Virus record (IMG/VR): IMGVR_UViG_3300010311_000419
Source of the DNA: a virus
Reading direction: 5' to 3' (one strand)
Length of the DNA stretch: 45,147 nt
Positions 5,609 to 45,147 of the stretch are shown in pieces (position 1 is the stretch's first letter; every line of letters starts with the position of its first letter). Both the position numbers and the translations under genes were made by a program. The notes under the pieces were generated by a model. That model was not told where the DNA came from. It saw nothing but the letters and a program-made list of their open reading frames with translations, and did no database searches.

Positions 5609-6403
5609 CTAAGCGATGGTGAATGTTTCAAATGAGAAGGTCTGTGTCACTTCAAACTCGGAATCAGGGTCAACTCTTCCGGAGGCGCCGGTAATCTTCG
5701 CGCCAGTACCGGAGAATGTGATCTTGTGAGAAGCGCTCGATGCGTCCACATATTTAATTTCGAATGAGATCGCCGCTTTGGCCGGGTCCCACGCGCCCGA
5801 CGCAATTTTGCTTACGGTAGAGGATGCAATAACAAATTCTCCCTCGTAGGTAGCCGTTCCAATCTCCACGTCAGTCGGGGACAATGAAGTCCCGTAAATC
5901 CCGGTAACGTCTTGGTTTTTGTTGAGCGAGAAGCTACGAATCACATCCGTTTCGCTCGCCCACGTGATCGTTGCGTCCGAGAAAACGAAGTAAGTCTCTG
6001 GAGTGATCGCCGTGGGTGCTGTCGCACCAGTCGTGATGCTTAAGAACATTCCATCGAGCGAGTATTCGAGCGGCGCGTCCTCCCCACCACTGATAGTCAT
6101 GTTCCCGAAATAGCAACTCCCAAGCGTTGCATCGTGTACTCTCAACTCAACCGCGGGGGGGACTCCCTCACCGGTGTTTGTCCCGAACGCGAGAACGTCT
6201 TTGCTCGTAACCAATCCGCCAAGGCTGATCGCTTGATCGTATTTGGTCATTCTGGTCTTGGTATAACCGCCGATCCCTTTTTCTTCGGCGGCCTCGTTCG
6301 TTATCGAAGGCGATATGCTCTGGAGTAACCCGAGATGAACATTAGTCCCGGACGACTCAAGCCTGCCTACCACCTTCATTTGAGAACCTTGTAACGCTGC
6401 CAC
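5609..6403 (-). CDS. Major tail protein
   Basis: 264 aa, Thr/Ser/Gly-rich, between connector genes and chaperone/tape-measure genes; followed by terminator-like hairpin. Confidence 0.55.
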   Translation of the reverse strand: MAALQGSQMKVVGRLESSGTNVHLGLLQSISPSITNEAAEEKGIGGYTKTRMTKYDQAISLGGLVTSKDVLAFGTNTGEGVPPAVELRVHDATLGSCYFGNMTISGGEDAPLEYSLDGMFLSITTGATAPTAITPETYFVFSDATITWASETDVIRSFSLNKNQDVTGIYGTSLSPTDVEIGTATYEGEFVIASSTVSKIASGAWDPAKAAISFEIKYVDASSASHKITFSGTGAKITGASGRVDPDSEFEVTQTFSFETFTIA

Positions 6404-6407
6404 TTTA

Positions 6408-6839
6408 TCACCTCACTGTTTCGATTTGTATTTCGATTGCCGCGCCCACGACGTAATGGTTCGATGATTCAACCAGTATTCGCTCGAGCGCGTATCCGGG
6501 CACTTGATAAAACACTCGACGGTTTTCGATGCTGCTGTTCTTGTTTTTGAATATCGCCACGATCTTCTCTGCCGCTTCTGCGTTGCTCTTCTCCAGTTCC
6601 TCAGCTTGCGCGAAGGTGCCACGGTTCGCATAGATGATCGTGAAGTCGAGCTTTTCTTTTGCCGCGCCGGCGCTGCTCACATACATCGCACGATCGGCTC
6701 TTCCAGGCAATATCTCTATCAACGGATAGATCGCGTTCTTCGCCCAGTTCAGCGCGCCGATCTTGATCGTCTCCGCTTGGAACTCCGTATCCAACGTGTT
6801 CTTTATCTCGTCGAGCAACTCTTTGTACATATCAATCAC
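6408..6839 (-). CDS. Putative tail completion / tail terminator protein
   Basis: Gene order only. Confidence 0.35.
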   Translation of the reverse strand: MIDMYKELLDEIKNTLDTEFQAETIKIGALNWAKNAIYPLIEILPGRADRAMYVSSAGAAKEKLDFTIIYANRGTFAQAEELEKSNAEAAEKIVAIFKNKNSSIENRRVFYQVPGYALERILVESSNHYVVGAAIEIQIETVR

Positions 6840-7653: not shown

Positions 7654-7687
7654 AAAAAGGACCAGCCGGCATTATACCGGCGTGGCC
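7654..7687 (-). terminator. Imperfect hairpin plus T-tract downstream of the major capsid gene
   Basis: GGACCAGCCGG / CCGGCGTGGCC arms with TTTTT following on the minus strand. Confidence 0.3.
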
Positions 7688-7689
7688 TA

Positions 7690-8751
7690 TTAGGATATCG
7701 TGCTTGTAAATACTTTGCACGCGTTAGCGTTATACAAAATCGGGAGAGGATAGGAGAGTAGCGATATAGTCTTCGTGTGCCCTTCGGATGCTTCGGGAAT
7801 CTTCTCTTTGACGATGACATCGGTCATAATTGGGGATCCATCGGGTTTGAGTTCAAAGTCGACAACCGCGCCGTAGCCGAGAGCAAACTGGCTTGTATTG
7901 AGCAGAATCATCTTTCCGCTTGTGCTTGAGGATTCGGGGATATACTTCGTCGCAACGTTCGAATCGTTCGCGTAGGTCCCGGAATACACGTATATCTCTG
8001 GGATTCCAAACTCTTGGAACTCACCGATGAACCGAACGCTCGGCGAATTAAACCGAGGCTTAAGCAACCCAAAGTTGTAATTGTTTTTGCTGATATACTT
8101 TTCTGTTTTTGAGTGGTTCATGATCCCGCGCGCAAGATACGGGGTCATCAGGATAACGTTCGGCCACATCCCGAGTGTTTGCGCGAACGTCTCGCATTCC
8201 GCGCCGATAAGTTCGAGCGGGTCCGTTGAACTGCTCACCGCGAGTTTCCCGGTTGTGCTGATTCTGTAATCCTGCTCAAATGTTCTTTCAGTCGTTGTGA
8301 AGCTGATTTTCCCAGTCAGGAGGAGTTGTCCGAACATATACTCGATACGGCGTTTAAGCCGATCGCGAAGCCCCTGGAGTTTAACGCCGTAGGAATACGC
8401 GAAGGAACGCGTGATATCCGAAGCGTCATTCAGGTTTGCAAGTTCATTCAGATTAAACGAAGAAGTCAGAGCTTCCGTCGATTCGATGCTGTCGCGTTCG
8501 AAGATTTGGGGCGGCGTCACGGTGATGTCTTCGGCGGTGTTCTTGTAATCAATATTGCGCGCCGGATCGTCACGTAATCCGATCGAGCTCATCTTGCCGG
8601 AAGTGGTGATCATTCGCCATTTGATCGTGGTCGTCGGGCTGAATATTTTACTGGATCCAAGCATTTGCGTGAGAAAGAACGGCTCATCCCTCATCTGTTG
8701 CAATACTTTAGTCAATAACGTAGTCCAGGTAGCACTGTTGAACGTCGCCAT
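7690..8751 (-). CDS. Major capsid protein (lambda E-like position)
   Basis: 353 aa ORF after scaffold and a small decoration-sized ORF, followed by a terminator. Confidence 0.55.
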   Translation of the reverse strand: MATFNSATWTTLLTKVLQQMRDEPFFLTQMLGSSKIFSPTTTIKWRMITTSGKMSSIGLRDDPARNIDYKNTAEDITVTPPQIFERDSIESTEALTSSFNLNELANLNDASDITRSFAYSYGVKLQGLRDRLKRRIEYMFGQLLLTGKISFTTTERTFEQDYRISTTGKLAVSSSTDPLELIGAECETFAQTLGMWPNVILMTPYLARGIMNHSKTEKYISKNNYNFGLLKPRFNSPSVRFIGEFQEFGIPEIYVYSGTYANDSNVATKYIPESSSTSGKMILLNTSQFALGYGAVVDFELKPDGSPIMTDVIVKEKIPEASEGHTKTISLLSYPLPILYNANACKVFTSTIS

Positions 8752-9278
8752 TACGCCGTCACCCCTTCTCTTTCAAGTACAATGATTCCGTTCTTCGCCA
8801 GTCTCGCTTTTGTGTCCGCGCTCAGCGTGCCGTACAGATCAGAATCGGCCACTACACCGTTGAGCAGAGTCTTCGCGTATCCGATCGTTTGGTTTTTATC
8901 TACATCTTCGGAGAGCACCGCGCACGGTTCGTAGGTGTACATGTTGTAACCAACTTTGATAACTGCGTTTTTCGTATGGCTCGATATCGTGATGACCTTC
9001 GTCGAGTAGTTCGTCGTGATCTTGGTGGTAGACGTGCCAACTGATACGGATAGTATCGCGGGAGAACCATATTCGATCGCGTAAGTGGCTGCTGTTAAGG
9101 CTGTGGCTGTGCTCGTCGCCATCGTGGTCGTAACGGTCACCGCCGTAGGAGTGGCTTTGTACAACCCCGTGAGGTTATCCCATCCCATCACCTGTTTCGC
9201 GGACAGCGTCGCGTTTGTTGCAACGGATACCATCAGTTCGTATCCGCTTTCAAACCCTTCGGTTTTCAAACTCATCAT
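8751..9278 (-). CDS. Putative head decoration / capsid accessory protein
   Basis: 175 aa, Thr/Ala-rich, between scaffold and major capsid genes. Confidence 0.35.
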   Translation of the reverse strand: MMSLKTEGFESGYELMVSVATNATLSAKQVMGWDNLTGLYKATPTAVTVTTTMATSTATALTAATYAIEYGSPAILSVSVGTSTTKITTNYSTKVITISSHTKNAVIKVGYNMYTYEPCAVLSEDVDKNQTIGYAKTLLNGVVADSDLYGTLSADTKARLAKNGIIVLEREGVTA

Positions 9279-10195
9279 TTCACCTCCACGCCGGCGAACG
9301 TTTTAGCCAGCTTGTCAATGTCTACCCCTTTAGGCGCTTCTTCGGAATCGGATAATCCTACGTAGCGTTTCGTCGGGACGGTTGTCGATGTTTCGAGGAT
9401 TGATTCGAAGAACTTCTCTTGATTAGGATCCTCGACCAGTTTATCTGCCAGCATCTTCACAAGCGCGGGGGCCTTGCTCTTCGCGAGCCAGCCGTCGCGC
9501 CATTGCTGCACGTGCATCGTGTGTTTCTCTTTTTGCATTGTTTCCAGATCATCGATGAGCTTCTTGATCTGGCCGTCTTTCTCTTTGATCTGCTCTTCGA
9601 ATTGCTTGGTAAGCGTTTCCTCTAACTGTTTGTTTTGCGTTTTCAAGGCTGCGAGTTCTTCTTCGTAGCGCTTGACAACAGCAAAATCGTTCGCGTTTTC
9701 TGCCATTCTCTTAGCTCCTTTGTCGTTGTTTCCATAGGCCGTCTCTATGTCAATCTCTACATTCCAGGTTATCAAGTTGTGTTCTCCATCCGCGTCTGTT
9801 AGCGTGATACGTTGCATTCCGGGTTGTGCCGGGATAGGCGTCAGCGATATCTCCAAAAGTGTTGGCCCTTCCTCTTGCCCGGTCGTCTTGTTGATATAGT
9901 TGTCGTGATAGGCAGGGCTCAAGAAGTCATACCGGCCGCTTTTGATTAGCTTCTCACCTTCCGAAGTGAACTCGATATCCGCGGCGAGCCCCTCATCTTT
10001 TATCCGCAATGCCTTAATCTCCCCGTACTTGCCACCTTTGCTCTCGTGAGACAGAAGTACTGGTATCGGATACGGCACAATCTTCCGGTCGAGATTCTTC
10101 TTGAGTTGTTCCGCGATTCTCTTCGAGTGTTCAACCCTGCCGTATCGAGAATCGTAGAAGGTTTGGAAAGGCAGGATCAGAACTTCTTTTGTCAC
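9275..10195 (-). CDS. Putative capsid scaffold / maturation protein
   Basis: 306 aa with a long charged coiled-coil C-terminal half (EELAALKTQNKQLEETLTKQFEEQIKEKDGQIKKL), upstream of capsid genes. Confidence 0.45.
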   Translation of the reverse strand: MTKEVLILPFQTFYDSRYGRVEHSKRIAEQLKKNLDRKIVPYPIPVLLSHESKGGKYGEIKALRIKDEGLAADIEFTSEGEKLIKSGRYDFLSPAYHDNYINKTTGQEEGPTLLEISLTPIPAQPGMQRITLTDADGEHNLITWNVEIDIETAYGNNDKGAKRMAENANDFAVVKRYEEELAALKTQNKQLEETLTKQFEEQIKEKDGQIKKLIDDLETMQKEKHTMHVQQWRDGWLAKSKAPALVKMLADKLVEDPNQEKFFESILETSTTVPTKRYVGLSDSEEAPKGVDIDKLAKTFAGVEVK

Positions 10196-12360
10196 ACCGT
10201 TTTCACCTCCTGTGATTCGGTTAATAGGTTTGCAATTATGTCTTTGATCGCGTTCAATTGCGCTTCTTCCCCATGTTCCTCGGCGTGTTTACGGTATCCT
10301 TCGCTGTCGTACTGGTTGCTTAGGATCATCCGCACGGCCTCGTCTACGGTGTTGTACAGGTATTCCTCGGGATACACGTCGGTTGCTCCCCAGAAGTGAT
10401 GGATGATCGGTTTAATTCCTTTGCTCTCCGCTTCGAGGATTGCCATGCCGGTCCCTTCGGTGTAGGATGTCGAGAGGAAATAGTTCTTATCTTCGAGGAA
10501 GGCGTTCATGTCTTTTTGATGCCCTACGAAGTGGATGTTACGTTCCAGCCCAAGCTGTGTGATGATGTGTTTGAGGTATTGCCAGAGCCGGATGTCTTGG
10601 AGTTCGCCAGCCCAGAATAACTCGTATCCGGGATCCAACCGCGCGAGCTGGTTCATTATCTGCACCATCATCATCGGGTTCTTCAGCGCGTTGATATGCC
10701 CGGCGAATGCGATCTTGTATCCGGTCCCGTGGTTACCGTAGCTGAATCGTTTGGTATCCACGCCCATCGGCACGAGAGCGACTTTATCCGCAGGCACGAT
10801 CTCTTTCGCCAGCTCATAGATATGATCCGCTTCGAACATCACACAATCGGCGTTGTTGTAGTTGATTTGTTTCAGGAATCCGTTGTAAGCCTCGTAAGCG
10901 TGTACGCGGATGATGGTCTTCTTTGCCGGATACTTGTTTGTCCCGGCGATCGCGAGTTCGTTTCCGAATTCGTACCAAACGAGATCGGCCCAGTCGATGT
11001 ACTGCTTCGCGTGTTCGATGTCACTTACCACCGCCGTCTGCACGATATAATCCCGCGCGAGTTCGTGTCGCACGCCGTGGAGGAATGAAGCGAGGCCCGG
11101 CGCGACGATGATTGCGATCTTCTTGCGTTTGGTAGCCATCTCATGATTGGCTTCACCGTACAACCGAGAGTAGTAAGGCGAGAGATTGATCCGTTCGTGA
11201 TCGGCGAGCTTAAGAATAGCCGGTTCGAAGCGTTTTAAGACATTTGCGTGTTGCGTTTGCGCGAGTGTTCTTATCAATTCATCCGCCGCCCACGTCGTGA
11301 TCGTCGTGGCCTTCACATCCCGCAGAATCACGAGCGCCCTGTCGATCATCCCCGTCTCCGCTGCCGCCTTGGCGCCGATGATCAGCGCAACGTCGTGATA
11401 CTTCTCGTATTGAAGCGTGAACAGACACCCGCTCTTGTTGAACGCCGCTACCTTTGCCGTGTACGTCTCAAAGGCTTTTAAGGCGTTAAGCGGCTGCTTG
11501 AGCGCGTTAAACATCAACTCCTCAACGATGTAAGAGTCCGGGCAATCAGGAGCCATTGACCGCGCCGCCGAGATGCACGCTCTGATGATGTCTTGTTCGT
11601 TGTATTCGAGCGCTTGCAACCCGAGAAGCACGAAGATGTCGTGCATCATTACGGGGATGGCCTTCGTCATTCTTACTTCCGAAAGCAACGCCTTGCCGTA
11701 CGTATAGGCTTCTTCTTTCTGCTCACACACGAGAAGCGTTTTGTAGTATTGCGCCTTGTAGTAGAGCCGCTCCATCCCGCTGAGTGTGTCGCCTTGGAGT
11801 ATCTTTTCCATCATCGACAGGAGCCGCTTGCGCTTCTTCTCTCTGAGCTCCGGCGTCCACTGATAACCGTAATGGTTTGATATCAGGTTCGTGGTGATGG
11901 TCTCTTGTTCATATTGCGGATGGTTATGCACCGCATACTTGTAGGAGATTGTGCCGCGGCGGAATATTCGAGGGAGTGTGAGCGAGTCTTGGAGTGTGTC
12001 CGTGATGATGTTGCGCGTAATCATCATAACCGTCTTAACTTCCGGTGGCTGAGATTCAAGCAATGGCCGGAGTTCTTTTTGCGCCTCTTCCGTAAGTTCT
12101 TCATCGCCGTCGTAGATGAACACCCAGTCGCCCACACATAAAGCGATCGATGCGTTCCTGGCCTCACTGAAATCTTCTTTCCATTCGTGGTCATACAGTT
12201 TGATCTTTTGATCGTTGAACCCGATGATGATCTCTTTTGTCCGATCAGCAGAACCGGTATCAAGTATCACTATCTCATCCGCGATTGGTAGAACGCTTCG
12301 GAGCGCTCTTTCTATGTTCTTCTCCTCGTCCCGTACTATCATTGCAACGCTAACTAACAT
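10192..12360 (-). CDS. Two-domain glycosyltransferase (N-terminal GT-A/family-2-like, C-terminal GT-B/family-4-like)
   Basis: N-terminus MIVRDEEKNIERAL..ILDTGSAD and YDGDEEL (DxD-type); C-terminus FVGHQKD...EGTGMAILEA resembles the GT4 E-x7-E region; 722 aa. Confidence 0.65.
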   Translation of the reverse strand: MLVSVAMIVRDEEKNIERALRSVLPIADEIVILDTGSADRTKEIIIGFNDQKIKLYDHEWKEDFSEARNASIALCVGDWVFIYDGDEELTEEAQKELRPLLESQPPEVKTVMMITRNIITDTLQDSLTLPRIFRRGTISYKYAVHNHPQYEQETITTNLISNHYGYQWTPELREKKRKRLLSMMEKILQGDTLSGMERLYYKAQYYKTLLVCEQKEEAYTYGKALLSEVRMTKAIPVMMHDIFVLLGLQALEYNEQDIIRACISAARSMAPDCPDSYIVEELMFNALKQPLNALKAFETYTAKVAAFNKSGCLFTLQYEKYHDVALIIGAKAAAETGMIDRALVILRDVKATTITTWAADELIRTLAQTQHANVLKRFEPAILKLADHERINLSPYYSRLYGEANHEMATKRKKIAIIVAPGLASFLHGVRHELARDYIVQTAVVSDIEHAKQYIDWADLVWYEFGNELAIAGTNKYPAKKTIIRVHAYEAYNGFLKQINYNNADCVMFEADHIYELAKEIVPADKVALVPMGVDTKRFSYGNHGTGYKIAFAGHINALKNPMMMVQIMNQLARLDPGYELFWAGELQDIRLWQYLKHIITQLGLERNIHFVGHQKDMNAFLEDKNYFLSTSYTEGTGMAILEAESKGIKPIIHHFWGATDVYPEEYLYNTVDEAVRMILSNQYDSEGYRKHAEEHGEEAQLNAIKDIIANLLTESQEVKTV

Positions 12361-12365
12361 CTTTT

Positions 12366-13271
12366 TTATGCTCCTTTCGCATAGATTCTCGCGGATTCGA
12401 AGAGCGGCGCACAGTAGCGCAGCATCTCCTCGCGAGGGATAGATGGTACACGGATAAAACTCGGCAATTGGTTGTTTAGATAACTGGAGGCAACCGTCAT
12501 GAAGTAGTTACGCAGGTATTCCGCACGGTTAATCGTTGCATTTCGCGGCATATACACGCTGTCCTCAAAATGATCGACGATATATCGAAGGATCGCGTTG
12601 ATCGCTCGAATGCGCCGTTCAATCCCGTGCGTATGGCTTGATTTGTGTATGCGATAGTGGCGGAATGGTTTGTTGATCGCTTTGGTACGCAAGCCCATTC
12701 GAAGATAGTGCATGGTGTTGATCGTGTCCACGTCGCATCCGAGATACTTGATATAACCGCGGCGCTTTAAGAAGGACGCTCTCATCAATCCTTTCGAAGA
12801 GATCACACTCGACCCGTGCCGTTCGAAGGTTCGCCGTACCGCGTCTTTCGCTTCATAATCCTCAACCGGCCACATCTCCGTCGAGCGGCCGTCTTCGTAA
12901 TGCACGCAGCAACCTGAGTACACGTAATCTATCCGCGGATCAGATTCGATCAGCTTCACCGATTCCGCTATCGTGTCCGGTTCGAGCCAGTCGTCCGCGT
13001 CGTAGAAGTAAATGTACTTGCCTTTCGCCTCTTCTATCATTCGATTTGTGCCTTCCAACACGCGGCCCGAGTTCATATCCGATCGAATGATCTTAATGCG
13101 ATCGGCATAACGGTTCAGCACATCGCCGGATTCGTCGGTCGAGCAGTCGTCGTACACAATGATCTCGAGATTGCGGTGTGTCTGGTCAAGCATCGAATCG
13201 ATGCACCGTGCGAGATACCGCCCGTAGTTGTAGTTATTGATCCCGACCGTGACTAACGGCGCCGTTTCCAT
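12366..13271 (-). CDS. Family-2-like glycosyltransferase
   Basis: VGINNYNYGRYLARCIDSMLDQT...IIVYDDCSTDES and YFYDADD motifs typical of GT-A fold. Confidence 0.65.
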   Translation of the reverse strand: METAPLVTVGINNYNYGRYLARCIDSMLDQTHRNLEIIVYDDCSTDESGDVLNRYADRIKIIRSDMNSGRVLEGTNRMIEEAKGKYIYFYDADDWLEPDTIAESVKLIESDPRIDYVYSGCCVHYEDGRSTEMWPVEDYEAKDAVRRTFERHGSSVISSKGLMRASFLKRRGYIKYLGCDVDTINTMHYLRMGLRTKAINKPFRHYRIHKSSHTHGIERRIRAINAILRYIVDHFEDSVYMPRNATINRAEYLRNYFMTVASSYLNNQLPSFIRVPSIPREEMLRYCAPLFESARIYAKGA

Positions 13272-13435
13272 TTTCTCGCCTTCTCTTCTTTTGCCGTTTC
13301 TTTTGCGGTGATCCCCGCGTAGAATCCAAGGCCGAGGCCAAGACCCACGCCGATGATGAATAGTATGATGTGCATTCTCTTCACTCTCCCAAACAAAAAA
13401 GAGCCTTCCGGCTCTTCTTTGTGTTTATTATTCAC
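13253..13435 (-). CDS. Small membrane protein (60 aa)
   Basis: One hydrophobic helix (IILFIIGVGLGLGLGFYAGI) plus basic tail. Confidence 0.3.
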   Translation of the reverse strand: MNNKHKEEPEGSFLFGRVKRMHIILFIIGVGLGLGLGFYAGITAKETAKEEKARKWKRRR

Positions 13436-13446
13436 TTGGTGAATGT

Positions 13447-14379
13447 TTAGTATTGATTCAGCACCGAGAGTATCGTCGCAATATCCTCCGGCCGCTGTTT
13501 GCTTGCTGTCTTGAGGCGTGTATCGTTGATGTTCTTGTACTGATCCTTACGCTTGGAATACTTCGTGACCGGCTCGAGATTCGAACGGCAGTTGACGTGC
13601 AACGGCGGCGTGTTGGATGCGATCGCGCCCGTATCGTGCACCGGGATGAATATGTTATTGCGTTCGCGACATATATCCGTCGTGAGCATATCAAGCACCG
13701 CGTTGAAACGATATCCCTCGAGGATCGTGCTGCCTTGACACTCTTCAAGCGTCCCGACGTTATACGCCCGCGTCGCTTCGGTGATAGCGATTGCTTTCGC
13801 CCTTTGCCTTGCGAAGTCGGTGATCTTGTTACGGAGATAGGTCGTCGCCTGCTCCGCGCTCATCCCCTGCTCGATTGTGTTCTTGATAAGATCGGTAACG
13901 TGTTCGAGTGTGTCTTGCGCTTCAATCCCCGCGAGTTTGACCGTGTACTGGCTCATAAACGCCATCGCCTTCTCGCTCGGCCGGAAGTATTCGTCGAACG
14001 CTTCCGCTTCATTCTTAATGAGTTTCGTCCCGATGATCCCGAGCAATCCCTTAATGAGTTTGGCGTCGTTCTGCAAAATGATCTTGAGCACGGCCACTGT
14101 CTGGCTCCAATCAGGTGTCGCAAATCGCCGGTTAGGCGCGCGCGTGAACTTGCCCCGCGCCTGCTTGACAATATCGCCAAATCCGCTGATACGCCCGTAC
14201 AGGAACGCCGTCATCACGCCGCTCATAATCGCGTTTTGAAAATCAGGAATGATGTCGTAGGTTATGGATCGATTATCAGTTACCGCCTGCCGAAGCCGTT
14301 TCCACGGGCTCATCAGGTAGTGTGTTATTCGGTTTTCCGCGTAACTGAGCGCCGTCTTGGTCATTATCGCCGTCGGCAT
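13447..14379 (-). CDS. Head morphogenesis protein, Mu F / SPP1 gp7-like
   Basis: ITEATRAYNVGTLE and PPLHVNCRS motifs typical of this family; lies after portal. Confidence 0.65.
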   Translation of the reverse strand: MPTAIMTKTALSYAENRITHYLMSPWKRLRQAVTDNRSITYDIIPDFQNAIMSGVMTAFLYGRISGFGDIVKQARGKFTRAPNRRFATPDWSQTVAVLKIILQNDAKLIKGLLGIIGTKLIKNEAEAFDEYFRPSEKAMAFMSQYTVKLAGIEAQDTLEHVTDLIKNTIEQGMSAEQATTYLRNKITDFARQRAKAIAITEATRAYNVGTLEECQGSTILEGYRFNAVLDMLTTDICRERNNIFIPVHDTGAIASNTPPLHVNCRSNLEPVTKYSKRKDQYKNINDTRLKTASKQRPEDIATILSVLNQY

Positions 14380-15499
14380 CCGGTATCACCGCCCCTTCGT
14401 ATTCCGGGATAGATAACATGTCGCGAATCCACGGTTCCGTGGGATCCACCACGCCGCCGCTTATCAACGCGGTTATATATCCGGCCATCGCCGCCTTGTC
14501 GTCAACGCTCGGTTGCACGTTGATCGCAAACTCGCCGTAGTCTTCTTGCACGCCGAAGTTGTACTCGATGAGCCGTGTTACCAACTGGTCAAGGATTTGG
14601 TTCGCGTAGTTCGTCGCCTGCGAACGCATCGTGTCTTGGAAGAGTTGCATGTGCGTTTTGCTCATTGCATACGCGCCGGTATCCGAAGACGATGATATCA
14701 GTTGAGGTACCTGCAAGCCGCGGAAGATGAGCGTGTTAAGATACTCGATCGAATCTTGGAAACTCCGCGCCATATCGCTCCCTGGTTGAAGCGTGGATAT
14801 CTTGTCACCGATCGGCACCGATACGCCAGCCTTCGAGAACCACGACGCGAATATTGCGCGCGCTGCGTTCGGATCGGACGATTCCGCCACGACCGTCGGG
14901 ATCGCGAACTTCTCCATCGCAACCGCCCACCACTTCTTTAGGGCCGTCTTGAACTGCCAGCTTGAAAACACGGGCCTGAGAACGCTCTCCCCGTAGATGC
15001 CACCGCCGTTGCGGAGGACCAGACACTTCTCCGGCGGCAGGATAATCTTGCCGTACTTAATCGTCGTGAACTCAATCGCGAGCGATTCGTCATCTTGAAC
15101 CTTGAACGCGCATTGATACGGCGCGAGCCGTGTGATGTCGGCCACCTTAACAACGCCATCGTCGATCGTGTAGATGATCTCCCCAACCGCGTAACCGTAG
15201 CCTTGCGCCTCGTAGATCATTCGCTGGAGCACGTTGCCGATAGAGGTGTTCGAGAAGTCTATCGCTTGGTTGATTGTCTCGTCTATCCGCTCATCCGGAT
15301 GCGTGTATCTCCCGATCGATGAGTAGATCATATTCGTCGTGTACTTGAGCCCTGCTTTAATCGTCTCGTCACGCGTGAGCATCTTTTCTTTGTCTTCGTT
15401 CTCGAGGTCATCTTCGTTCAGTATCACGCCGAGAATCTCCCAGAAGCGATCCTGGAGGCTGATATATTGCGTTGTGTCTATTTTCTGCTGTTCTGCCAT
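14276..15499 (-). CDS. Portal protein
   Basis: ~407 aa immediately downstream of TerL; ATG at 15499 is preferred over the track start at 15547. Confidence 0.6.
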   Translation of the reverse strand: MAEQQKIDTTQYISLQDRFWEILGVILNEDDLENEDKEKMLTRDETIKAGLKYTTNMIYSSIGRYTHPDERIDETINQAIDFSNTSIGNVLQRMIYEAQGYGYAVGEIIYTIDDGVVKVADITRLAPYQCAFKVQDDESLAIEFTTIKYGKIILPPEKCLVLRNGGGIYGESVLRPVFSSWQFKTALKKWWAVAMEKFAIPTVVAESSDPNAARAIFASWFSKAGVSVPIGDKISTLQPGSDMARSFQDSIEYLNTLIFRGLQVPQLISSSSDTGAYAMSKTHMQLFQDTMRSQATNYANQILDQLVTRLIEYNFGVQEDYGEFAINVQPSVDDKAAMAGYITALISGGVVDPTEPWIRDMLSIPEYEGAVIPDADGDNDQDGAQLRGKPNNTLPDEPVETASAGGN

Positions 15500-15503
15500 T
15501 TCA

Positions 15504-16715
15504 TCACCACGCCGTGTATTCGGATTTTGTGCCCGTGTAGAGGCCATAACGCATCGCGTCCATCAAGTGATCCTGAAACTTGACCGGTTCATCGAGCACG
15601 CGCCCGTCTTTGTCTTCCCGCCATTTGTACGATAGCAATTCTTTGATCAGGTTCGAGCTCTCCGAGTAGACGCGGAGCTTTCGGCTCTTTGCAAAGTCAA
15701 TCCCTTTGAGCACGTCTTTCTTGGCCGGCATCGCGGTTAAACCCGCCGCCCTCAGCTCTTGGATACGGTTCGGTTCGGCGCTGTCACAATAGATTCGGCC
15801 CGATACGTTGAGTTGCTTTATCTTGTCGATCAGTTCCGCGTTCGTGAGGTGCGTCTGATAGATTAGTTCCCGCAGGTATATCTCGCCGTCGTACTCGCGT
15901 ATCTCTACGAGCGCCGTCGGGTTGTTGAACCCGAAGTCAAGCCCGTACGTAACCGTTCCGGCTTTCGGCATCTCGTTTGTGAGCCGCCAGTTATTGTAGA
16001 TAAGCCCTTTTGGGGATCCCCATTCTCCCAGCGCGTATATCTGGTAATACGTCGGGTCTTGGTCTTTAAGCCCTTCAATCACTTGCTTATAGTCGTCTCC
16101 GAGGAATCGGTTGTCTTTGTACGTTGTCTTGAGGATTGAGGCGTTCTCGACGCGTTGATCGAAGAACCTCTTCTTGAGCCAGCTATACTCGGATACGGGG
16201 TTAAACGATAAGATGATTTGGTTCGGATAGTTTGATCTGGTTCGGAGCCGAAGGTCAAGCTGCATAAAGTCTTCCGGCGTTATCTCGCTCGCCTCTTCGA
16301 TCCAGATGTCCGTTATGCCGGTGATGGATTTGAGCTTCTCCACGTCATCAAGGCCAGTGAAGAGTATCTGATTCTCGGAGATGCCGCGCACTTGTAGCGT
16401 GATGTCAAGCTCCGTCTTGTCGATCTTGAATAGCGGGTTAAGCTTCCATCCGCTTATAACGCTTCGCAAGAGGTCATACGTGCTGTGCCGATTGGTTCGC
16501 GCAACCTTCCGCACGACGAGGTATCGGTGTCCGCGTTCTTTGAGTGTTCGGTAGATGATCTTTTGCGCGACAAAGTGGCTCTTACCCGATCCGGCTCCGC
16601 CGTAGTAGATTTCGTAGCGCGTTTGATTTTTGAGATATGGAATGTATGCGTCGTTGAATTCTTGTGCTTTGCTCTTGAATCGAATATCTATAACAGTGTC
16701 ATTCGCCATCATCAT
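15504..16715 (-). CDS. terL: Terminase large subunit
   Basis: Walker A YYGGAGSGKSHF near N-terminus; 403 aa; follows terS. Confidence 0.85.
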   Translation of the reverse strand: MMMANDTVIDIRFKSKAQEFNDAYIPYLKNQTRYEIYYGGAGSGKSHFVAQKIIYRTLKERGHRYLVVRKVARTNRHSTYDLLRSVISGWKLNPLFKIDKTELDITLQVRGISENQILFTGLDDVEKLKSITGITDIWIEEASEITPEDFMQLDLRLRTRSNYPNQIILSFNPVSEYSWLKKRFFDQRVENASILKTTYKDNRFLGDDYKQVIEGLKDQDPTYYQIYALGEWGSPKGLIYNNWRLTNEMPKAGTVTYGLDFGFNNPTALVEIREYDGEIYLRELIYQTHLTNAELIDKIKQLNVSGRIYCDSAEPNRIQELRAAGLTAMPAKKDVLKGIDFAKSRKLRVYSESSNLIKELLSYKWREDKDGRVLDEPVKFQDHLMDAMRYGLYTGTKSEYTAW

Positions 16716-17031
16716 CGAACCCGATCTTGATGAGTATATTGCCCCCGTGATCGATGTCGAGGTTATCGCGTTGCCCGAGATATTGTTTGCCTAACCATAT
16801 GAGTATCGTCCGGTCACCGCTTTCCGCTGCTTTCCATTGAAGCCTGCGGAGGCTTGCACGACCACGTTGTCGCTCTTGGTTATAGAGTTCATTAAACTTT
16901 GCGTCGCGTTGGAGCGTGTCAACGGAGAGTTCGAGAACCGCAGCGATCTCTTCTTGCGTACAATGTATCACCGATAGTTTCTTCACGAGTTCGTAGTCTA
17001 TTTTTTTTCTCGGTCTTGCCATCTGTATCAC
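16699..17031 (-). CDS. terS: Terminase small subunit
   Basis: 110 aa, basic N-terminus with HTH-like segment, directly upstream of terL. Confidence 0.55.
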   Translation of the reverse strand: MIQMARPRKKIDYELVKKLSVIHCTQEEIAAVLELSVDTLQRDAKFNELYNQERQRGRASLRRLQWKAAESGDRTILIWLGKQYLGQRDNLDIDHGGNILIKIGFDDDGE

Positions 17032-26131: not shown

Positions 26132-26485
26132 GTGCTAAAATTGATTGCAATGGGCTTTGAAGCTAAAACAACAGGAAAAAGAATCGCGGATATTCGAGGT
26201 AAGAATAATATTAGTCAAGAGAAGTTGGCTGAAACGCTAAGCAAGAGCGTATCCCTGATTTCTCTTTACGAGGGCGGGCATCGTGTACCACCGCCAGATG
26301 TTTTGTACCAGCTTTCAGAATTGTTTGGGGTATCTGTGGATTATTTGCTTGGCCTTACCGACAACCCAAAGCCGATCGGAGGTTTACCTCCCGACTACGC
26401 TCGTCTAAAAGCGATCGAGGTGGAATTGGAGAAGATCGACCTCGCGCGGATCATCGAGATCGAGCGGCTGATGCGGAAGTTATAG
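26132..26485 (+). CDS. CI-like HTH (XRE family) repressor
   Basis: ISQEKLAETLSKSVSLISLYEGG HTH; only plus-strand gene in the early region; may start at ATG 26150 as a leaderless mRNA. Confidence 0.65.
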   Translation: MLKLIAMGFEAKTTGKRIADIRGKNNISQEKLAETLSKSVSLISLYEGGHRVPPPDVLYQLSELFGVSVDYLLGLTDNPKPIGGLPPDYARLKAIEVELEKIDLARIIEIERLMRKL

Positions 26486-26602: not shown

Positions 26603-27340
26603 TTAAAAAAGCCTCTGCTGTCTATCTTCTCTGTCAAACCTTTGCTCAAGTTCGAATATCGTCTTGTCGCGCGTGAAAGTGTTACACCTATCATTAAAAT
26701 CGCTTCCCCACTTCAGCAGAAGTTGCCATAAATAATTATAGTTTTTCTTGAGAAGGCGCAAAGAACCAAGCCTTTGCTTGTTGCAAAACCAGCACCCACC
26801 GCGAGCCAAATCGGTATATATAGGCGACACAAGATCAAGCGATTCGCATATCGCCATCGCTTCCCGCTCGGTTATTTTATAATCAACTAATGGCGCTTTT
26901 ATGTTTCCAACAATCTTACCGTGCCTTTTTGGCTCATCGTAGGCATAGCCTATATACTGAATGCCTTTGTTGGTTTGATGTTTTTTTAAGACCTTCTGTT
27001 TTAATTCGCTTACACACCAGCTTCCTATTATGTTTGGAAACCCATACATTTTGCCTGGGTATTTACCTCTTTTTCTTATCCTGTGGTAAATTTCCTCGAA
27101 CGTATAATCAGAACTAACACGCTCGACCTCTATTCCATATCGATCCAGAATAATTTTATCCGCTTTGTTTTTGAAGTCAACCATAGGCGGTAAATCCGCT
27201 GGTATATCCTTTGTAGCCCAGATTTCCGCGTGTATGATTCTTGTTAATGGCAGTTTATTCTGATGTATAACTTCTAACATTGCAAGACTGTCTTTTCCGT
27301 AACTTATTGATGCTACATACTCCAGTAACTCGTCGACCAT
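26603..27340 (-). CDS. PAPS-reductase-like (PP-loop ATP pyrophosphatase family, DndC-like) protein
   Basis: PP-loop-like SYGKDS near N-terminus and C-terminal GGCWFC; AGGAG RBS before second ATG at 27340. Confidence 0.6.
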   Translation of the reverse strand: MVDELLEYVASISYGKDSLAMLEVIHQNKLPLTRIIHAEIWATKDIPADLPPMVDFKNKADKIILDRYGIEVERVSSDYTFEEIYHRIRKRGKYPGKMYGFPNIIGSWCVSELKQKVLKKHQTNKGIQYIGYAYDEPKRHGKIVGNIKAPLVDYKITEREAMAICESLDLVSPIYTDLARGGCWFCNKQRLGSLRLLKKNYNYLWQLLLKWGSDFNDRCNTFTRDKTIFELEQRFDREDRQQRLF

Positions 27341-27649
27341 GGTAGGGTTGCTCCTCGTCAAAAATTATCCCCGCCCGCGGGGGTGGTGCGAGCGGGGAAC
27401 CAATGTGGTGTTTTTATTTCAAGAAAAAGGGGTCGAAAAATACCCCCTGCCGGTGTCCCGCCAGCAGAGGGCAAACGGAGGTATCACGTGTAGAAAGGAG
27501 GAGTTTTATCGGGGCGTTCGTTAGTCGCAATTAGTCGCAATTGGTGGTTTCGTCATTTTTTCTAGAACCTTAACCCGCCTCGGCCAGCGTTTCAGGTTTT
27601 CTATCGCTTCCGGAGAATACTCCTCTTCGAGGGGTTTAGAATATAATAT

Positions 27650-29005
27650 TCAAATTTGTTTTTCTTCTGTTTGTATTTTTTCTGATTTTCTGTTAAAGTT
27701 TATTTTCAAAATAGAACGCTGCCAACCATCGCCGTGTTGAAGCATTAGTGCCTTTTTAGTGCTACAACTTATTTCCTTCCCATTTTTATCCCTGATATGA
27801 ACTGTTCCGGCGCTTTTCACCGCGATTGCGCGTCCGGTTATGCCTTTGACTTTTACAAAATCGCCAGTCATGAATCCTTCTTTGGTCTTGTTGCGACTGC
27901 GATGACCTCTTGCAAAGCCATGTTTGTCCGGTATAATCGTTTGTCTGTTTCCACGGCCCATTATCTTGTTTATTGTTGCGTATTGTGTTTTAACATCAAT
28001 GTGCTTATCGCACAAACCAACACAAGCAGCATCAAAATAATGTTCTTTTGGCAACCCTTGATTGTGCCTGTTGAATTTCGTTCTCCCGCCAGAAGCGAGC
28101 TCAACGTCTCCAAATTCCTCTTTGAGCTTGTTGCATAAAACCCATCGGGTTGTGTTTACGCTTGCAGCATCTTTAAGGGTCTGTTTTGCGTCCTTTATCG
28201 CCTTTTCGAAATTTGCGATCATGGTTTTGGCTTTATCGCCTTTTTGTTTTGATAAGTATTCTATATATTCTTTCGGCATCATATTGGACTTCTCTTGATT
28301 GCATTTAACGCAAGCGATTGCGAGATTATCAATGCGGTCCGTGCCGCCTTTGCTTTTCGGAATCATGTGTTCAATTTCAAGAGGAACTTTTTCAGCACCA
28401 CAATAAGCGCATTTCCTACCGTATTTTTCGAGCAAGTATTCTTTCACTTCATACCCGAATAACTTTCCATGTTGATATTCAACGCCAGACACTTCGGGGT
28501 TTGCTAACTTTTGCATATCGAACTTCACGTGTTCAACTGATACAATTTGAATAGGCGCTAATGACTTCATTTTTCTAACTAAGTTAAGAGTTGAGTATAC
28601 TCTTGAAAGCATAGAGGGTGCGAAACGCCCTTTCTTTGTGCTGTTTTTTCTATTGGCCCAACGAGCTGGTCGATACCGTGTGTTTCTGTTTCTGCGGCCA
28701 CGGCGCATTTGCGACCTGTGTTTAAGGTTATCCGCGACCGTTATTTTATGCTTCACTATTCCGGCATAACGTAAAAGTAATTTGTCTTCTTTCTCTTGAA
28801 TAACAGCGATTCCTGTTTCTTTACTTCCGGGATCAATCTTTATTTGTAATGGCTCAACCTTACAATCCTCAACTTCGTTTTTTAGGCGAATCGTAAACGG
28901 AGTGTATTTGTGTATAACTGCTTTTTTGTTTTCGAGTAACTTTCTTGCTCTCTTCTCGGAGCAAGGCATCAAAGGTTCTTTGTGTTTGTTAAGTACGAAT
29001 ACCAT
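27650..29005 (-). CDS. iscB: IscB-type RNA-guided nuclease (PLMP, RuvC-I, bridge helix, HNH, RuvC-III)
   Basis: MVFVLNKHKEPLMP start; IKIDPGSKETGIAV; RSQMRRGRRNRNTRYRPARW; CAYCGAEKVPLEIEHMIPKSKGGTDRIDNLAIACVKCNQEK; KEHYFDAACVG; ~451 aa; AAGGAG RBS. Track start at 29071 rejected. Confidence 0.8.
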   Translation of the reverse strand: MVFVLNKHKEPLMPCSEKRARKLLENKKAVIHKYTPFTIRLKNEVEDCKVEPLQIKIDPGSKETGIAVIQEKEDKLLLRYAGIVKHKITVADNLKHRSQMRRGRRNRNTRYRPARWANRKNSTKKGRFAPSMLSRVYSTLNLVRKMKSLAPIQIVSVEHVKFDMQKLANPEVSGVEYQHGKLFGYEVKEYLLEKYGRKCAYCGAEKVPLEIEHMIPKSKGGTDRIDNLAIACVKCNQEKSNMMPKEYIEYLSKQKGDKAKTMIANFEKAIKDAKQTLKDAASVNTTRWVLCNKLKEEFGDVELASGGRTKFNRHNQGLPKEHYFDAACVGLCDKHIDVKTQYATINKIMGRGNRQTIIPDKHGFARGHRSRNKTKEGFMTGDFVKVKGITGRAIAVKSAGTVHIRDKNGKEISCSTKKALMLQHGDGWQRSILKINFNRKSEKIQTEEKQI

Positions 29006-29351
29006 ACAGGTATCACTCCTTTTATTTACAGCCCGAAGGCTTGCGCTTACGCGCCTTGTAACGCGAGGCATATGCCTCGTCTCTCCTCGACAATGTTATA
29101 ATGCCTTTTTACGAGCCAATCACTTGCGTACCTTCCGTGTTTACAATCGCATGTTTAGACTGGTTCGACAGAGCAGCCGGCTGGAGAAGCACCTGCTGGT
29201 GTCATGAGCAAAATAACGTAGGTCTCTAAGACCTTAGTCTGGACCCGCTTTGTAAATAGATAAGTTACAAACCGCTACACATAAGGTAAAATTAATCCGT
29301 GATTTATGTTACAGCCAAAAAGCAGCGGGCTTGAATGGCTTAACTCAACGG
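29006..29351 (-). ncRNA. Candidate omega-RNA / tracr-like scaffold for IscB
   Basis: Non-coding ~350 nt between array and iscB; consecutive hairpins including CGAGGC-AUAU-GCCUCG, GCGC-GUAA-GCGC (GNRA) and AGCC-UUCG-GGCU (UNCG); 29256-29264 is the exact reverse complement of 9 nt of the array repeat. Boundaries approximate. Confidence 0.5.
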
Positions 29352-32257: not shown

Positions 32258-33124
32258 TTTGTAAGTATATTATATCACATAGCATCACTCAACGCAAAAG
32301 GCTACAAAACACGAACCGGCAAACCGTGGGCGCAAACATCTATCTATGAGATGCTCCATAACAAGCGCTATGCCGGAATCTATACCTACCGCGGGAAGAA
32401 GCTCGGAAACAACAGCCACGCCAAACGCACGGATACGATAGAGGTTCCCGGCGTGATCCCGCCTATCGTATCGCCCGAGACATTCGAGCGCGTCAAGGCC
32501 CGATGGCGAACCAACATCACGCGCGCGCAAACCAAACACGCGCACATCTTAACCGGGATCATCTTCTGCGGCGTATGCGGCGCGCCGATGACCCTCACGG
32601 GCGGGCGTTATCCCAAGTATCAATGCTCGCGATGGAAGAATAACCGTGATACCCAATACGTGAGCGCAGGCGCGAAGACGGCAGATAAACGCGTGATCGG
32701 ATACGTTAAGAATATCATTCTCAACGAGCCCGACTTCGAAAAGATCGCCGAGAACTATAACAAGGAACACGCGCTATCAGATATGGCGCTCAAAAGCAAG
32801 GTCGAGGCCATCACCGCGGAACTCGCCGAAGTGAACTCCGGAATCGATAACGCCGTGAGCGCGATACTCAAAGGGATACTATCTGCCAAACTTGAAGAAG
32901 AAGTGAAGCGGTTGGAACTCAGAAAGAAGAAGCTGAACGAAGACCTCTTGAACCTCTCGCAAAGCACCGGGCGGCGCATCACGACCGAAGAGGTAAGAGG
33001 CATATACACGCGCTACGAAGAGATGCTGAACAGCGACGTAACCGAGCAACGTGCTCTTGTGCTTGATCTGATCGAGCGTGTAGAGGTATTCCCGGAAGGA
33101 TTTATGAACATCGCGCCGAAATAG
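32258..33124 (+). pseudogene. Large serine recombinase (integrase), N-terminally truncated: catalytic domain absent
   Basis: Frame open from stop at 32255-32257; ..KGYKTRTGKPWAQTSIYEMLHNKRYAGIYTY.. recombinase domain, zinc ribbon IFCGVCGAPMT...KYQCS, C-terminal coiled coil; no room upstream for the ~140-aa catalytic domain. Confidence 0.55.
32269..32297 (-). promoter_or_regulatory. Candidate promoter for the accessory operon
   Basis: Minus-strand TTGCGT (32297-32292), 17 bp, TATAAT (32274-32269); GAGGGGG RBS before ATG at 32236. Confidence 0.4.
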
Positions 33125-44959: not shown

Positions 44960-45147
44960 TCACCCCTTCTTCTCCGTAACGAGGACAGTCACATTCACAA
45001 CGCGGCCGTCCAGAGCGTTAAGTTTCGCGTTAATTGCGTCGATCTGTTCTTTAGCTGATGAGCTGACCGCCGAGAAAGTGCTTTTAGCGTTCGTTTCAAA
45101 CTGTCCGAAGGTCTTCTCGTTCACTTGCCCAATCTCGGTGTTGATAA
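44960..45147 (-). CDS. 3' end of the junction-spanning repeat protein (same gene as 1..1546)
   Basis: Hand translation continues in frame from base 1 through 45066 to a TGA at 44960-44962, five bases upstream of the next ATG at 44955. Confidence 0.45.
   Translation of the reverse strand, partial: INTEIGQVNEKTFGQFETNAKSTFSAVSSSAKEQIDAINAKLNALDGRVVNVTVLVTEKKG
45067..45147. repeat. Second copy of the 81-bp terminal direct repeat
   Basis: Exact match to 1..81. Confidence 0.9.

Follow-up and report, generated by a model that had tools for sequence, protein, structure and literature searches.

A glycosyltransferase cassette between head genes of uncultivated digester phages, with a putative role in late glycosylation of virion proteins

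To our knowledge, virion glycosylation by phage-encoded enzymes has been demonstrated so far only for mycobacteriophages, where it changes antibody recognition. The accounts of these systems cited here name Corndog gp35-38, Che8 gp107-110 and genes of Myrna as virion glycosylation genes (via PMC11600133, PMC11256854, PMC12363180), and relay a report that capsid and tail tube proteins are modified by Corndog gp35-38 (Freeman et al. 2023, Cell Host Microbe 31:1216, cited in PMC11600133, PMC12363180). In bacteria, the glycosyltransferase (GT) domain of GmaR transfers GlcNAc to flagellin, while its tetratricopeptide repeat (TPR) has been proposed as the substrate-binding part (PMC9638930); in the flagellin O-glycosyltransferase FlmG, flagellin is bound by a TPR domain and the sugar transferred by a GT-B domain (PMC7591256), and SgtA glycosylates BclA3 (PMC7157674). 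Here we analyse a cassette of two GT genes and a small membrane open reading frame (ORF), placed between head genes in IMG/VR record IMGVR_UViG_3300010311_000419, a phage sequence of 45,147 nucleotides from an anaerobic-digester metagenome (hereafter the window, meaning this whole stretch). We suggest, with about even confidence, that the cassette encodes a phage-borne, three-module cytoplasmic protein-glycosylation system, made late together with the head genes and decorating virion proteins.

The larger gene (GT722) encodes a protein of 722 amino acids (aa), which an AlphaFold2 (AF2) model with a predicted local distance difference test (pLDDT) score of 86.1 and a predicted template modelling (pTM) score of 0.75 divides into three predicted parts: GT-A, TPR-like helical and GT4-like GT-B (Table 1). 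A sequence-only reading of the window had already given both GT genes with correct coordinates, lengths and fold types, as borne out by the ORF positions, by domain searches with PF00535 and PF00534, by the AF2 model and by PDB and Foldseek matches. It had also paired a GT-A with a GT-B domain in the 722-aa protein, and both are present, but its two-part view missed the third, central helical domain. In sequence searches of the PDB the N-terminal domain matched GmaR at 3.2e-23 (aa 3-190), SunS at 1.3e-13 and ThuS at 4.3e-9, with the next generic GT at 7e-4. Foldseek likewise placed the GT-A and helical part with SunS and ThuS (E 1.9e-15, target TM 0.70-0.71, ~295 columns), and the TPR and GT-B part with the protein O-glycosyltransferases SPY and OGT (TPR plus GT-B); the best PDB matches of the model also included BshA-type GT4 enzymes. 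When the protein was aligned with 11 full-length homologues (96-37% identity, 12 sequences in all), the GT-A motifs D34-T-G-S37, D84-x-D86-E-E and H163-Y-G-Y and the GT-B motif E635-x7-E643 (EX7E) were unchanged throughout. The helical domain, a presumed acceptor-binding module on which none of the Pfam TPR models scored, is the most diverged stretch between phage lineages (26-51% identity in 50-column blocks). The best NCBIfam match of the whole protein was the SunS family (TIGR04195), at 57.6 bits against a cut-off of 350, and because no NCBIfam equivalog cut-off was reached we regard it as related to named families and a member of none.

The second enzyme, of 301 aa, came out as a generic GT2 in every search, with PDB matches to K4CP, GalT1, TarS and SpsA. 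No membrane segment was detected in either GT (maximum Kyte-Doolittle 19-residue scores 1.43 and 0.47), which is consistent with soluble cytoplasmic enzymes. Ratios of nonsynonymous to synonymous substitution rates, calculated against the relative L001 (labels of this form denote loci or contigs retrieved as relatives of window genes), were 0.053 for GT722, 0.046 for the portal and 0.060 for the MuF-like gene, values that indicate purifying selection on GT722 comparable to that on essential head genes.

Relatives of these enzymes in bacteria were collected by a scan of one genome per species, which returned 80 loci, and the fetched flanks (up to 10 kb either way) were surveyed for neighbouring genes. 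Identity of the GT-B domain is 40-51% to Thermotogota genes (Pseudothermotoga, Fervidobacterium) and 29-43% to those of many Clostridia and Bacilli. A flagellin gene is present in 20 of the 80 loci and a collagen-like ORF with at least 10 GXX repeats in 14; in 19, no more than 500 bp separate the GT-B homologue from a full-length homologue of the 301-aa GT2, and 39 additionally contain a GmaR-like GT-A. The bacterial GT2 homologues are 32-34% identical over their full length and are fused to the GT-B homologue in L036 and L072. By Pfam assignment, a TPR-GT1-methyltransferase protein directly follows flagellin in a Pseudothermotoga locus (L016), a Brevibacillus locus (L024) runs flgK, flgL, flagellin, a GT2-TPR gene, a TPR-GT1 gene, sugar-nucleotide genes and fliD, a Clostridium locus (L036) encodes a single GT1-GT2 fusion protein together with a GT2-TPR protein, and L072 has a BclA_C/collagen exosporium-type protein within the same cluster. 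Since they are adjacent or fused in such flagellin and BclA loci, all three modules of the cassette travel together in bacteria, and to judge by this gene content the relatives are cytoplasmic protein O-glycosylation systems for surface filaments. As a separate observation, a conserved protein of 97 aa and a CBM96-like one of 264 aa precede the fused GT-B and GT2 gene in the two Clostridium loci (L036 8738-9913; L072 8661-9823, 16091-16912), which in L072 is accompanied by the BclA_C/collagen protein and GT2-TPR genes; these look like an uncharacterised spore-surface glycoprotein locus.

In phages, GT722 is carried by ~35 IMG/VR contigs from anaerobic digesters. The order MuF, GT2, GT722, scaffold, 175-aa head protein and major capsid protein (MCP) is the same in L001 (82% identity) and in L005 and L006 (52%). 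A second lineage (lineage 2: L002, L003, L113, L122) has replication genes (DnaN, 96%; NUDIX, 94-97%) and terS (up to 94%) in common with the window, and BLAST detects no similarity to the window versions in its SPP1-type portal, MuF-like gene, DUF4355 scaffold and MCP. In this lineage a 711-aa GT (46% identity) adjoins terS/terL; the small membrane ORF (tm40) and an overlapping, 43%-identical GT2 are placed between the MuF-like gene and the scaffold, and a Ser/Thr/Ala-rich protein of 237 aa (22% Ser plus Thr, S+T) lies between scaffold and MCP. Distant head modules (L176, L178 and the short contig L179) keep a member of the 175-aa family between protease/scaffold and MCP, and because L176 and L178, whose head modules are of the window type, carry no GT genes, the cassette is an insertion. 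Megablast of window positions 9000-15000 against 50,697 GenBank phages returned no match, and tblastn of both GTs against the same phages yielded only partial alignments under 45% identity, with no comparable gene context among them; by these searches a close relative of the cassette is absent from isolated GenBank phages. Short GmaR-like GT-A genes (286-344 aa) were also seen in unrelated viral contigs, immediately following terL or where the head block ends (L146 9974-11008; L150 7835-8803; L136 9992-10852), and given that these contigs are unrelated, such GTs may be widespread in phage head and packaging modules.

The GT genes are mosaic among phages that are otherwise nearly the same. We compared phages whose MuF-like protein, scaffold, 175-aa protein and MCP are 88-100% identical to those of the window. 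The C-terminal GT-B part of their GT722 occurs as two alleles, either 97-100% or just 53-55% identical to the window sequence (the latter in L104, L109, L121 and L123/L166). This second allele is the lineage-2 sequence, and L104 is a clean chimera with its junction near residue 475, the exchanged part running to the C-terminus. The 301-aa GT2 is present as alleles of 100, 85, 74, 64 and 41% identity, and its catalytic N-terminal half has been taken away by three different deletions, which retain aa 196-301 in L098 and aa 258-301 in L092, and which fuse the membrane ORF to aa 177-301 in L101 and L102 (two samples). An apparent GT2 loss in L003 (~6062-6742) proved to be a scaffold gap, a run of N in the JGI contig mimicking a deletion, and is not counted. 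GT722 is intact wherever contigs cover it, and the accessory GT2 is replaced or deleted even among phages with capsid genes 93-100% identical. From these deletions and allele swaps it follows that the 301-aa GT2 is dispensable and that the capacity to build glycans differs between near-isogenic phages. In the comparison table, variants of the 175-aa protein did not evidently follow the GT allele type. We read the mosaicism as a sign that a surface-exposed product is probably diversifying; if so, these naturally occurring swaps and deletions would offer a ready-made allelic series for studying the role of a capsid glycan, for example in adsorption, stability or evasion.

Expression of the cassette with the head genes is suggested by its surroundings (promoter calls being consensus matches only). 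The best sigma-70-like site of the scan, at 18338-18310 on the minus strand (TTGACA-17-TATTAT, 11/12 positions, TG extension), stands upstream of the string methylase-terS-terL-portal-MuF-GT-scaffold-MCP. Minus-strand hairpin terminators were called at 18262-18245 and right after the MCP stop, and the second is likely to be the end of the head transcription unit. No promoter-like site was found ahead of the cassette, the sole minus-strand match inside it being a weak one of 9/12 positions within the GT2 gene (12730-12702), and the consensus scan called no minus-strand terminator between the GT genes and MCP. The cassette thus sits inside the head-morphogenesis operon, between MuF and scaffold, as the sequence-only reading had placed it. 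Its claim of translational coupling to structural genes holds on the 3' side, where the GT722 stop overlaps the GTG start of the scaffold gene (GTGA) with an AGGAGG Shine-Dalgarno sequence 11-12 nt before; on the other side a hairpin separates MuF from the cassette. Within the cassette, 5 nt separate GT2 from GT722, whose start is preceded by AAGGAG. The small membrane protein had been described as following the GT genes, but in the direction of transcription it comes first.

This hairpin has a predicted folding energy of -25.8 kcal/mol (z = -6.0) and is kept, with sequence changes, in L088, L101 and L001; lineage 2 has unrelated GC hairpins followed by a T-run in its place. It was read by eye and confirmed by folding, the consensus scan not having listed it on the minus strand (the stem extension probably consumed the T-run). 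L098 has lost the hairpin and yet keeps scaffold and MCP genes downstream of MuF, so the structure must be read through, and we therefore take it for an attenuator or an RNA-stabilising element. As it takes up codons 1-20 of the 60-aa ORF, the actual small ORF is probably that of ~40 aa starting at M21 (ATG 13375), and it is this part that is conserved in lineage 2. The stop of tm40 overlaps the start of the 301-aa GT2; at 55-68% identity tm40 is always found directly upstream of GT2 and overlapping it, in both phage lineages. No match to it was found in Pfam, PHROG or NCBIfam.

Table 1. Positions of the head/packaging block, the GT cassette and its predicted domains in the window
Feature	Position	Strand	Basis and remarks
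terS	16699-17031	minus	head/packaging block
terL	15504-16715	minus	PF04466, 6.3e-57
Mu-type portal	14276-15547	minus	PF06074, 3.4e-40
MuF-like minor head protein	13447-14379	minus	PF04233, 4.6e-13; upstream flank of cassette
Small membrane ORF, 60 aa from GTG 13435	13253-13435	minus	ORF list
Terminator-like hairpin, AAGAGCC-GGAA-GGCTCTT then TTTTGTTT	13391-13416	minus	between MuF stop and cassette
Small single-pass membrane ORF (tm40), ~40 aa	13253-13375	minus	maximum Kyte-Doolittle 19-residue score 2.16, aa 24-42
301-aa GT2 ("GT2b")	12366-13271	minus	PF00535, 7.6e-28
722-aa protein (GT722)	10192-12360	minus	PF00535 aa 4-108, 7.9e-19; PF00534 aa 535-661, 1.3e-13
GT722, predicted GmaR/SunS-type GT-A domain, aa 1-165	11866-12360	minus	AF2 and PDB sequence search
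GT722, predicted all-helical TPR-like domain, aa 170-404	11149-11853	minus	AF2 helices H170-H404, block pLDDT mostly 85-97
GT722, predicted GT4-like GT-B domain, aa 414-714	10219-11121	minus	PF00534 1.3e-13; PF13692 1.1e-9
Prohead protease/scaffold, Mu gpI-like	9275-10195	minus	PF10123, 8.5e-9; GTG start
175-aa head protein at lambda gpD position	8751-9278	minus	gene position; candidate acceptor
Major capsid protein (MCP), lambda gpE type	7690-8751	minus	PF03864 4.5e-17; phrog_29 6.1e-27; candidate acceptor
Hairpin terminator right after MCP stop	7665-7681	minus	7 pairs, 5 GC, then T-rich tail

Which virion protein might carry the glycan is suggested in part by composition. The sequence-only reading had proposed Ser/Thr-rich decoration, tail or fibre proteins as substrates, and the 175-aa head protein indeed has the highest Ser/Thr content of the virion module (25%); in its family, S+T is 0.22-0.25 where a GT is present in the locus, against 0.17 in the two relatives shown without one. 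Searches of Pfam, PHROGs and NCBIfam gave no family match for this protein and a PDB profile search gave a chance-level match only; as neither these searches nor the structure model yielded anything, its role as a decoration protein is proposed solely from gene position. A profile search of 1.84 billion representatives found 13 members of the family, which led to the head modules lacking a nearby GT but revealed no function.

In the mechanism that we propose, the TPR-like domain of the 722-aa enzyme would bind a phage structural protein, be it the 175-aa protein, the gpE-type capsid protein or a putative tail tube protein of 264 aa (5609-6403). The GmaR/SunS-type GT-A domain would then put a first sugar, from a host UDP-sugar, on Ser/Thr (or Cys), the fused GT4-like GT-B domain would lengthen the glycan, and the separate 301-aa GT2 could add a further, optional sugar, all of this before or during assembly. 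Domain swaps and loss of GT2 would alter the glycan displayed on the particle. It is possible, although we would place this a little short of an even chance, that tailed phages other than actinophages coat their particles with glycans by means of a portable cassette derived from bacterial flagellin and exosporium systems, the result being a serotype-like, fast-diversifying glycan.

Several observations weigh against late glycosylation of virion proteins. The substrates named by the sequence-only reading are no more than candidate acceptors; the S+T enrichment of the 175-aa protein is modest, at most suggestive, and may reflect no more than a beta-rich fold, and the AF2 model of this protein (from a 7-sequence alignment) is unusable at a pLDDT of 44. 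A terminator-like hairpin precedes the cassette, and the tight coupling of tm40 to GT2 hints at a membrane-associated step. The GTs have no sequence similarity to those of mycobacteriophages, and for that reason the parallel to the latter is one of position only. Finally, host proteins (flagellin, BclA) are the substrates of the bacterial relatives, and the same might still hold for the phage enzyme.

This last point leads to an alternative that we consider unlikely, in which the cassette acts on a host surface protein (flagellin, pilin, S-layer/toga), and changes the host surface during infection, for example masking a receptor so that neither progeny nor competing phages attach to infected cells and debris. 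Flagellin or BclA loci contain all close bacterial relatives, Thermotogota loci that adjoin flagellin have the nearest GT-B homologues (42-51%), and in public metagenome-assembled genomes (MAGs) several near-identical phage proteins bear the label Thermotogota. An integrase-like gene and an XRE-type regulator also make the phage look temperate. However, the GT genes are part of the late head operon, with no promoter-like site ahead of them and the weak 9/12 site within GT2 as the only one inside, and flagellin synthesised and modified in the last minutes before lysis would hardly get as far as the filament. The cassette also recurs specifically in the head and packaging modules of two lineages and has diverged most in its presumably substrate-binding helical domain, and a check of the window and of related phage loci (L001, L002, L003, L005, L087-L091) turned up no flagellin-like sequence.

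We think it similarly improbable that the product is a non-protein glycan (a lipid-linked sugar, cell-wall polymer or exopolysaccharide), with tm40 tethering GT2 and the whole being a moron-type envelope unit within the late operon. The absence of a membrane segment from both GTs, and of a flippase, polymerase or GtrA/GtrC-like partner from the window, fits such a unit poorly, even though tm40 overlaps the GT2 start in both lineages and the cassette is an insertion with a hairpin at its upstream boundary. The 301-aa GT2 does find its best matches among generic polysaccharide GT2s (TuaG, EpsE, PglI, K4CP, TarS); its bacterial counterpart nonetheless travels with the GT-B of flagellin/BclA loci, and is even fused to it, and the specific affinity of the 722-aa enzyme is to GmaR and SunS rather than to polysaccharide synthases. 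PHROGs puts such genes among morons, including a weak GtrB-like match (5.8e-8) which covers only the generic GT2 N-terminus, while every NCBIfam match lies far under its cut-off. The sequence-only reading had left open whether the glycan belongs to the virion or to the cell surface; the virion side is strengthened by the protein-GT relatives and by the Corndog-like position, and the cell-surface side is the less likely alternative.

Very improbable is a glycocin-like role, in which a SunS-like enzyme would glycosylate a small phage peptide, as SunS does for sublancin in SPbeta, the 40-aa ORF being that peptide. Structure points to SunS and ThuS as best matches and NCBIfam to SunS (at a score far below the cut-off), the cassette contains a small ORF, and among the few matches in isolated phages is yolJ of SPbeta (beta-1,4-glycosyltransferase in the record), which we take to be the gene for SunS. 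The 40-aa ORF is, however, hydrophobic and single-pass, with a basic tail and no cysteine, unlike glycocin precursors, it is coupled with the 301-aa GT2 rather than with the SunS-like enzyme, from which ~4 kb separate it in lineage 2, and the genome has neither an ABC exporter/protease nor thiol-disulfide genes. Hydroxymethylated bases can be substrates of phage GT-B and GT-A enzymes, and this genome has NUDIX, two DNA methylases and a PAPS-reductase-like gene, but glycosylation of phage DNA against restriction, as by T4 glucosyltransferases, is barely credible here, given that the genes lie in the head and not the replication module, that close relatives are all in protein-glycosylation loci, that the TPR-like domain points to a protein substrate, and that no hydroxymethylase or other hypermodification partner was found among the ORFs scanned, those of the replication module included.

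The window is free of N, and its positions 1-81 are identical to 45067-45147; because of this exact 81-bp terminal overlap we take it for a circularly closed, complete phage genome of 45,066 bp. It is not a prophage sitting within host DNA. Tail genes come after MCP, wrapping round the circle, and the protease/scaffold gene also matches NF045541 at 7e-5, far under the NCBIfam family cut-off. The integrase-like ORF (257 aa, 32351-33124, plus strand) covers only positions 307-560 of the 651-position profile phrog_95 and may be truncated or mis-started; together with an XRE-type regulator at 26132-26485 (plus strand) it makes the phage probably temperate or descended from a temperate phage. Host assignment from MAG labels (Thermotogota, Verrucomicrobia) was discarded as unreliable, the labels stemming from short binned contigs. 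A PAPS-reductase-like gene (26603-27361, minus strand; phrog_424, 4.8e-28), which in relatives adjoins genes labelled Csf1/Csf3 (PF27781/PF27782; L001 1105-3277, L005 58-3353), and two N6/N4 DNA methylases, one of them fused to ParB_N, may form a module for DNA modification or anti-defence. An IscB/OMEGA-type element (27650-29330, minus strand) in the low-GC stretch at 26-31 kb consists of a 473-aa ORF with RRXRR (PF14239, 4.4e-60) and HNH domains and, directly upstream, a HEARO RNA (Rfam RF02033, 29076-29330; 96.5 bits against a gathering threshold of 83, E 1.1e-18). No tRNA genes were found in the window.

Returning to late glycosylation of virion proteins, the cassette can be set beside the known systems. 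GmaR, the flagellin O-GlcNAc transferase of Listeria monocytogenes (GT2, TPR and antirepressor), is the best sequence match of the N-terminal domain and has the same succession of a ~180-residue GT-A domain and a TPR domain, but its C-terminal linker and MogR-binding antirepressor are replaced by a ~300-residue GT-B domain in the 722-aa protein; flagellin adjacency is seen only in the bacterial homologues, and the window has neither flagellin nor MogR context. The glycocin S-glycosyltransferases SunS and ThuS (SPbeta prophage and Bacillus) match the GT-A and helical part best in structure, and SunS too is phage-borne, whereas the window has no glycocin precursor or exporter, adds a GT-B domain and keeps its genes in a structural operon. 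The likeness to FlmG-like TPR plus GT-B enzymes and to SgtA-BclA3-type loci is one of architecture and context, not drawn from a homology comparison to FlmG or SgtA themselves; bacterial GTs of flagellin and BclA loci are separate or fused genes, while the phage has GT-A, one helical domain and GT-B in one chain, and no flagellin, BclA or sugar-nucleotide genes near the cassette. Gtr seroconversion modules (GtrA/GtrB/GtrC, with a membrane-anchored bactoprenol GT, a flippase and a serotype-specific GT) are not matched, since the only membrane ORF in the cassette is the single-pass peptide of ~40 aa, and they adjoin int/att and are expressed from the prophage, whereas the integrase-like gene of the window is 19 kb away. 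With no resemblance to Gtr, no membrane segment in the GTs and this distance from the integrase-like gene, the earlier view that these are not lysogenic-conversion genes is supported.

The closest parallel in placement is Corndog, where a TylF-type O-methyltransferase (gp35) and gp36-38 (weak GT2 and GT25 matches) lie between the portal (gp34) and the protease (gp39), with MCP as gp41; both phages thus have GTs in tandem in the same portal-to-protease/MCP slot of the structural operon. The enzymes differ, GT25, weak GT2_2 and a TylF methyltransferase in Corndog against PF00535 and PF00534 in the window, and Corndog is without a TPR-like domain, a GT-A/GT-B fusion or a small membrane ORF. BLASTP of the 301-aa GT2 against Corndog gp36 gave E = 3.4, that is, no detectable similarity, and no mycobacteriophage was among the tblastn matches of the 722-aa protein in the 50,697 phage records. 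Mycobacteriophages also belong to another phage lineage, presumably with hosts of another phylum, and their virion glycans have been measured, whereas those of the window phage are predicted from genes. Phage GTs of a structural operon that glycosylate the virion are thus a kind of system known since 2023. What is new here are the enzyme families, the origin of flagellin/BclA type, the two uncultivated digester phage lineages outside the actinophages, the serotype-like mosaicism and, in the proteins themselves, the union of GT-A, TPR-like and GT-B domains in one chain together with a coupled membrane peptide. If the proposed function is correct, the 722-aa protein would be a compact single-chain enzyme for cytoplasmic protein glyco-engineering, and the cassette would represent a second, non-homologous solution in an unrelated phage group, in the same slot of the head operon as in Corndog, which would suggest that the sugar-coating of virions is a recurrent strategy and not a peculiarity of actinophages.

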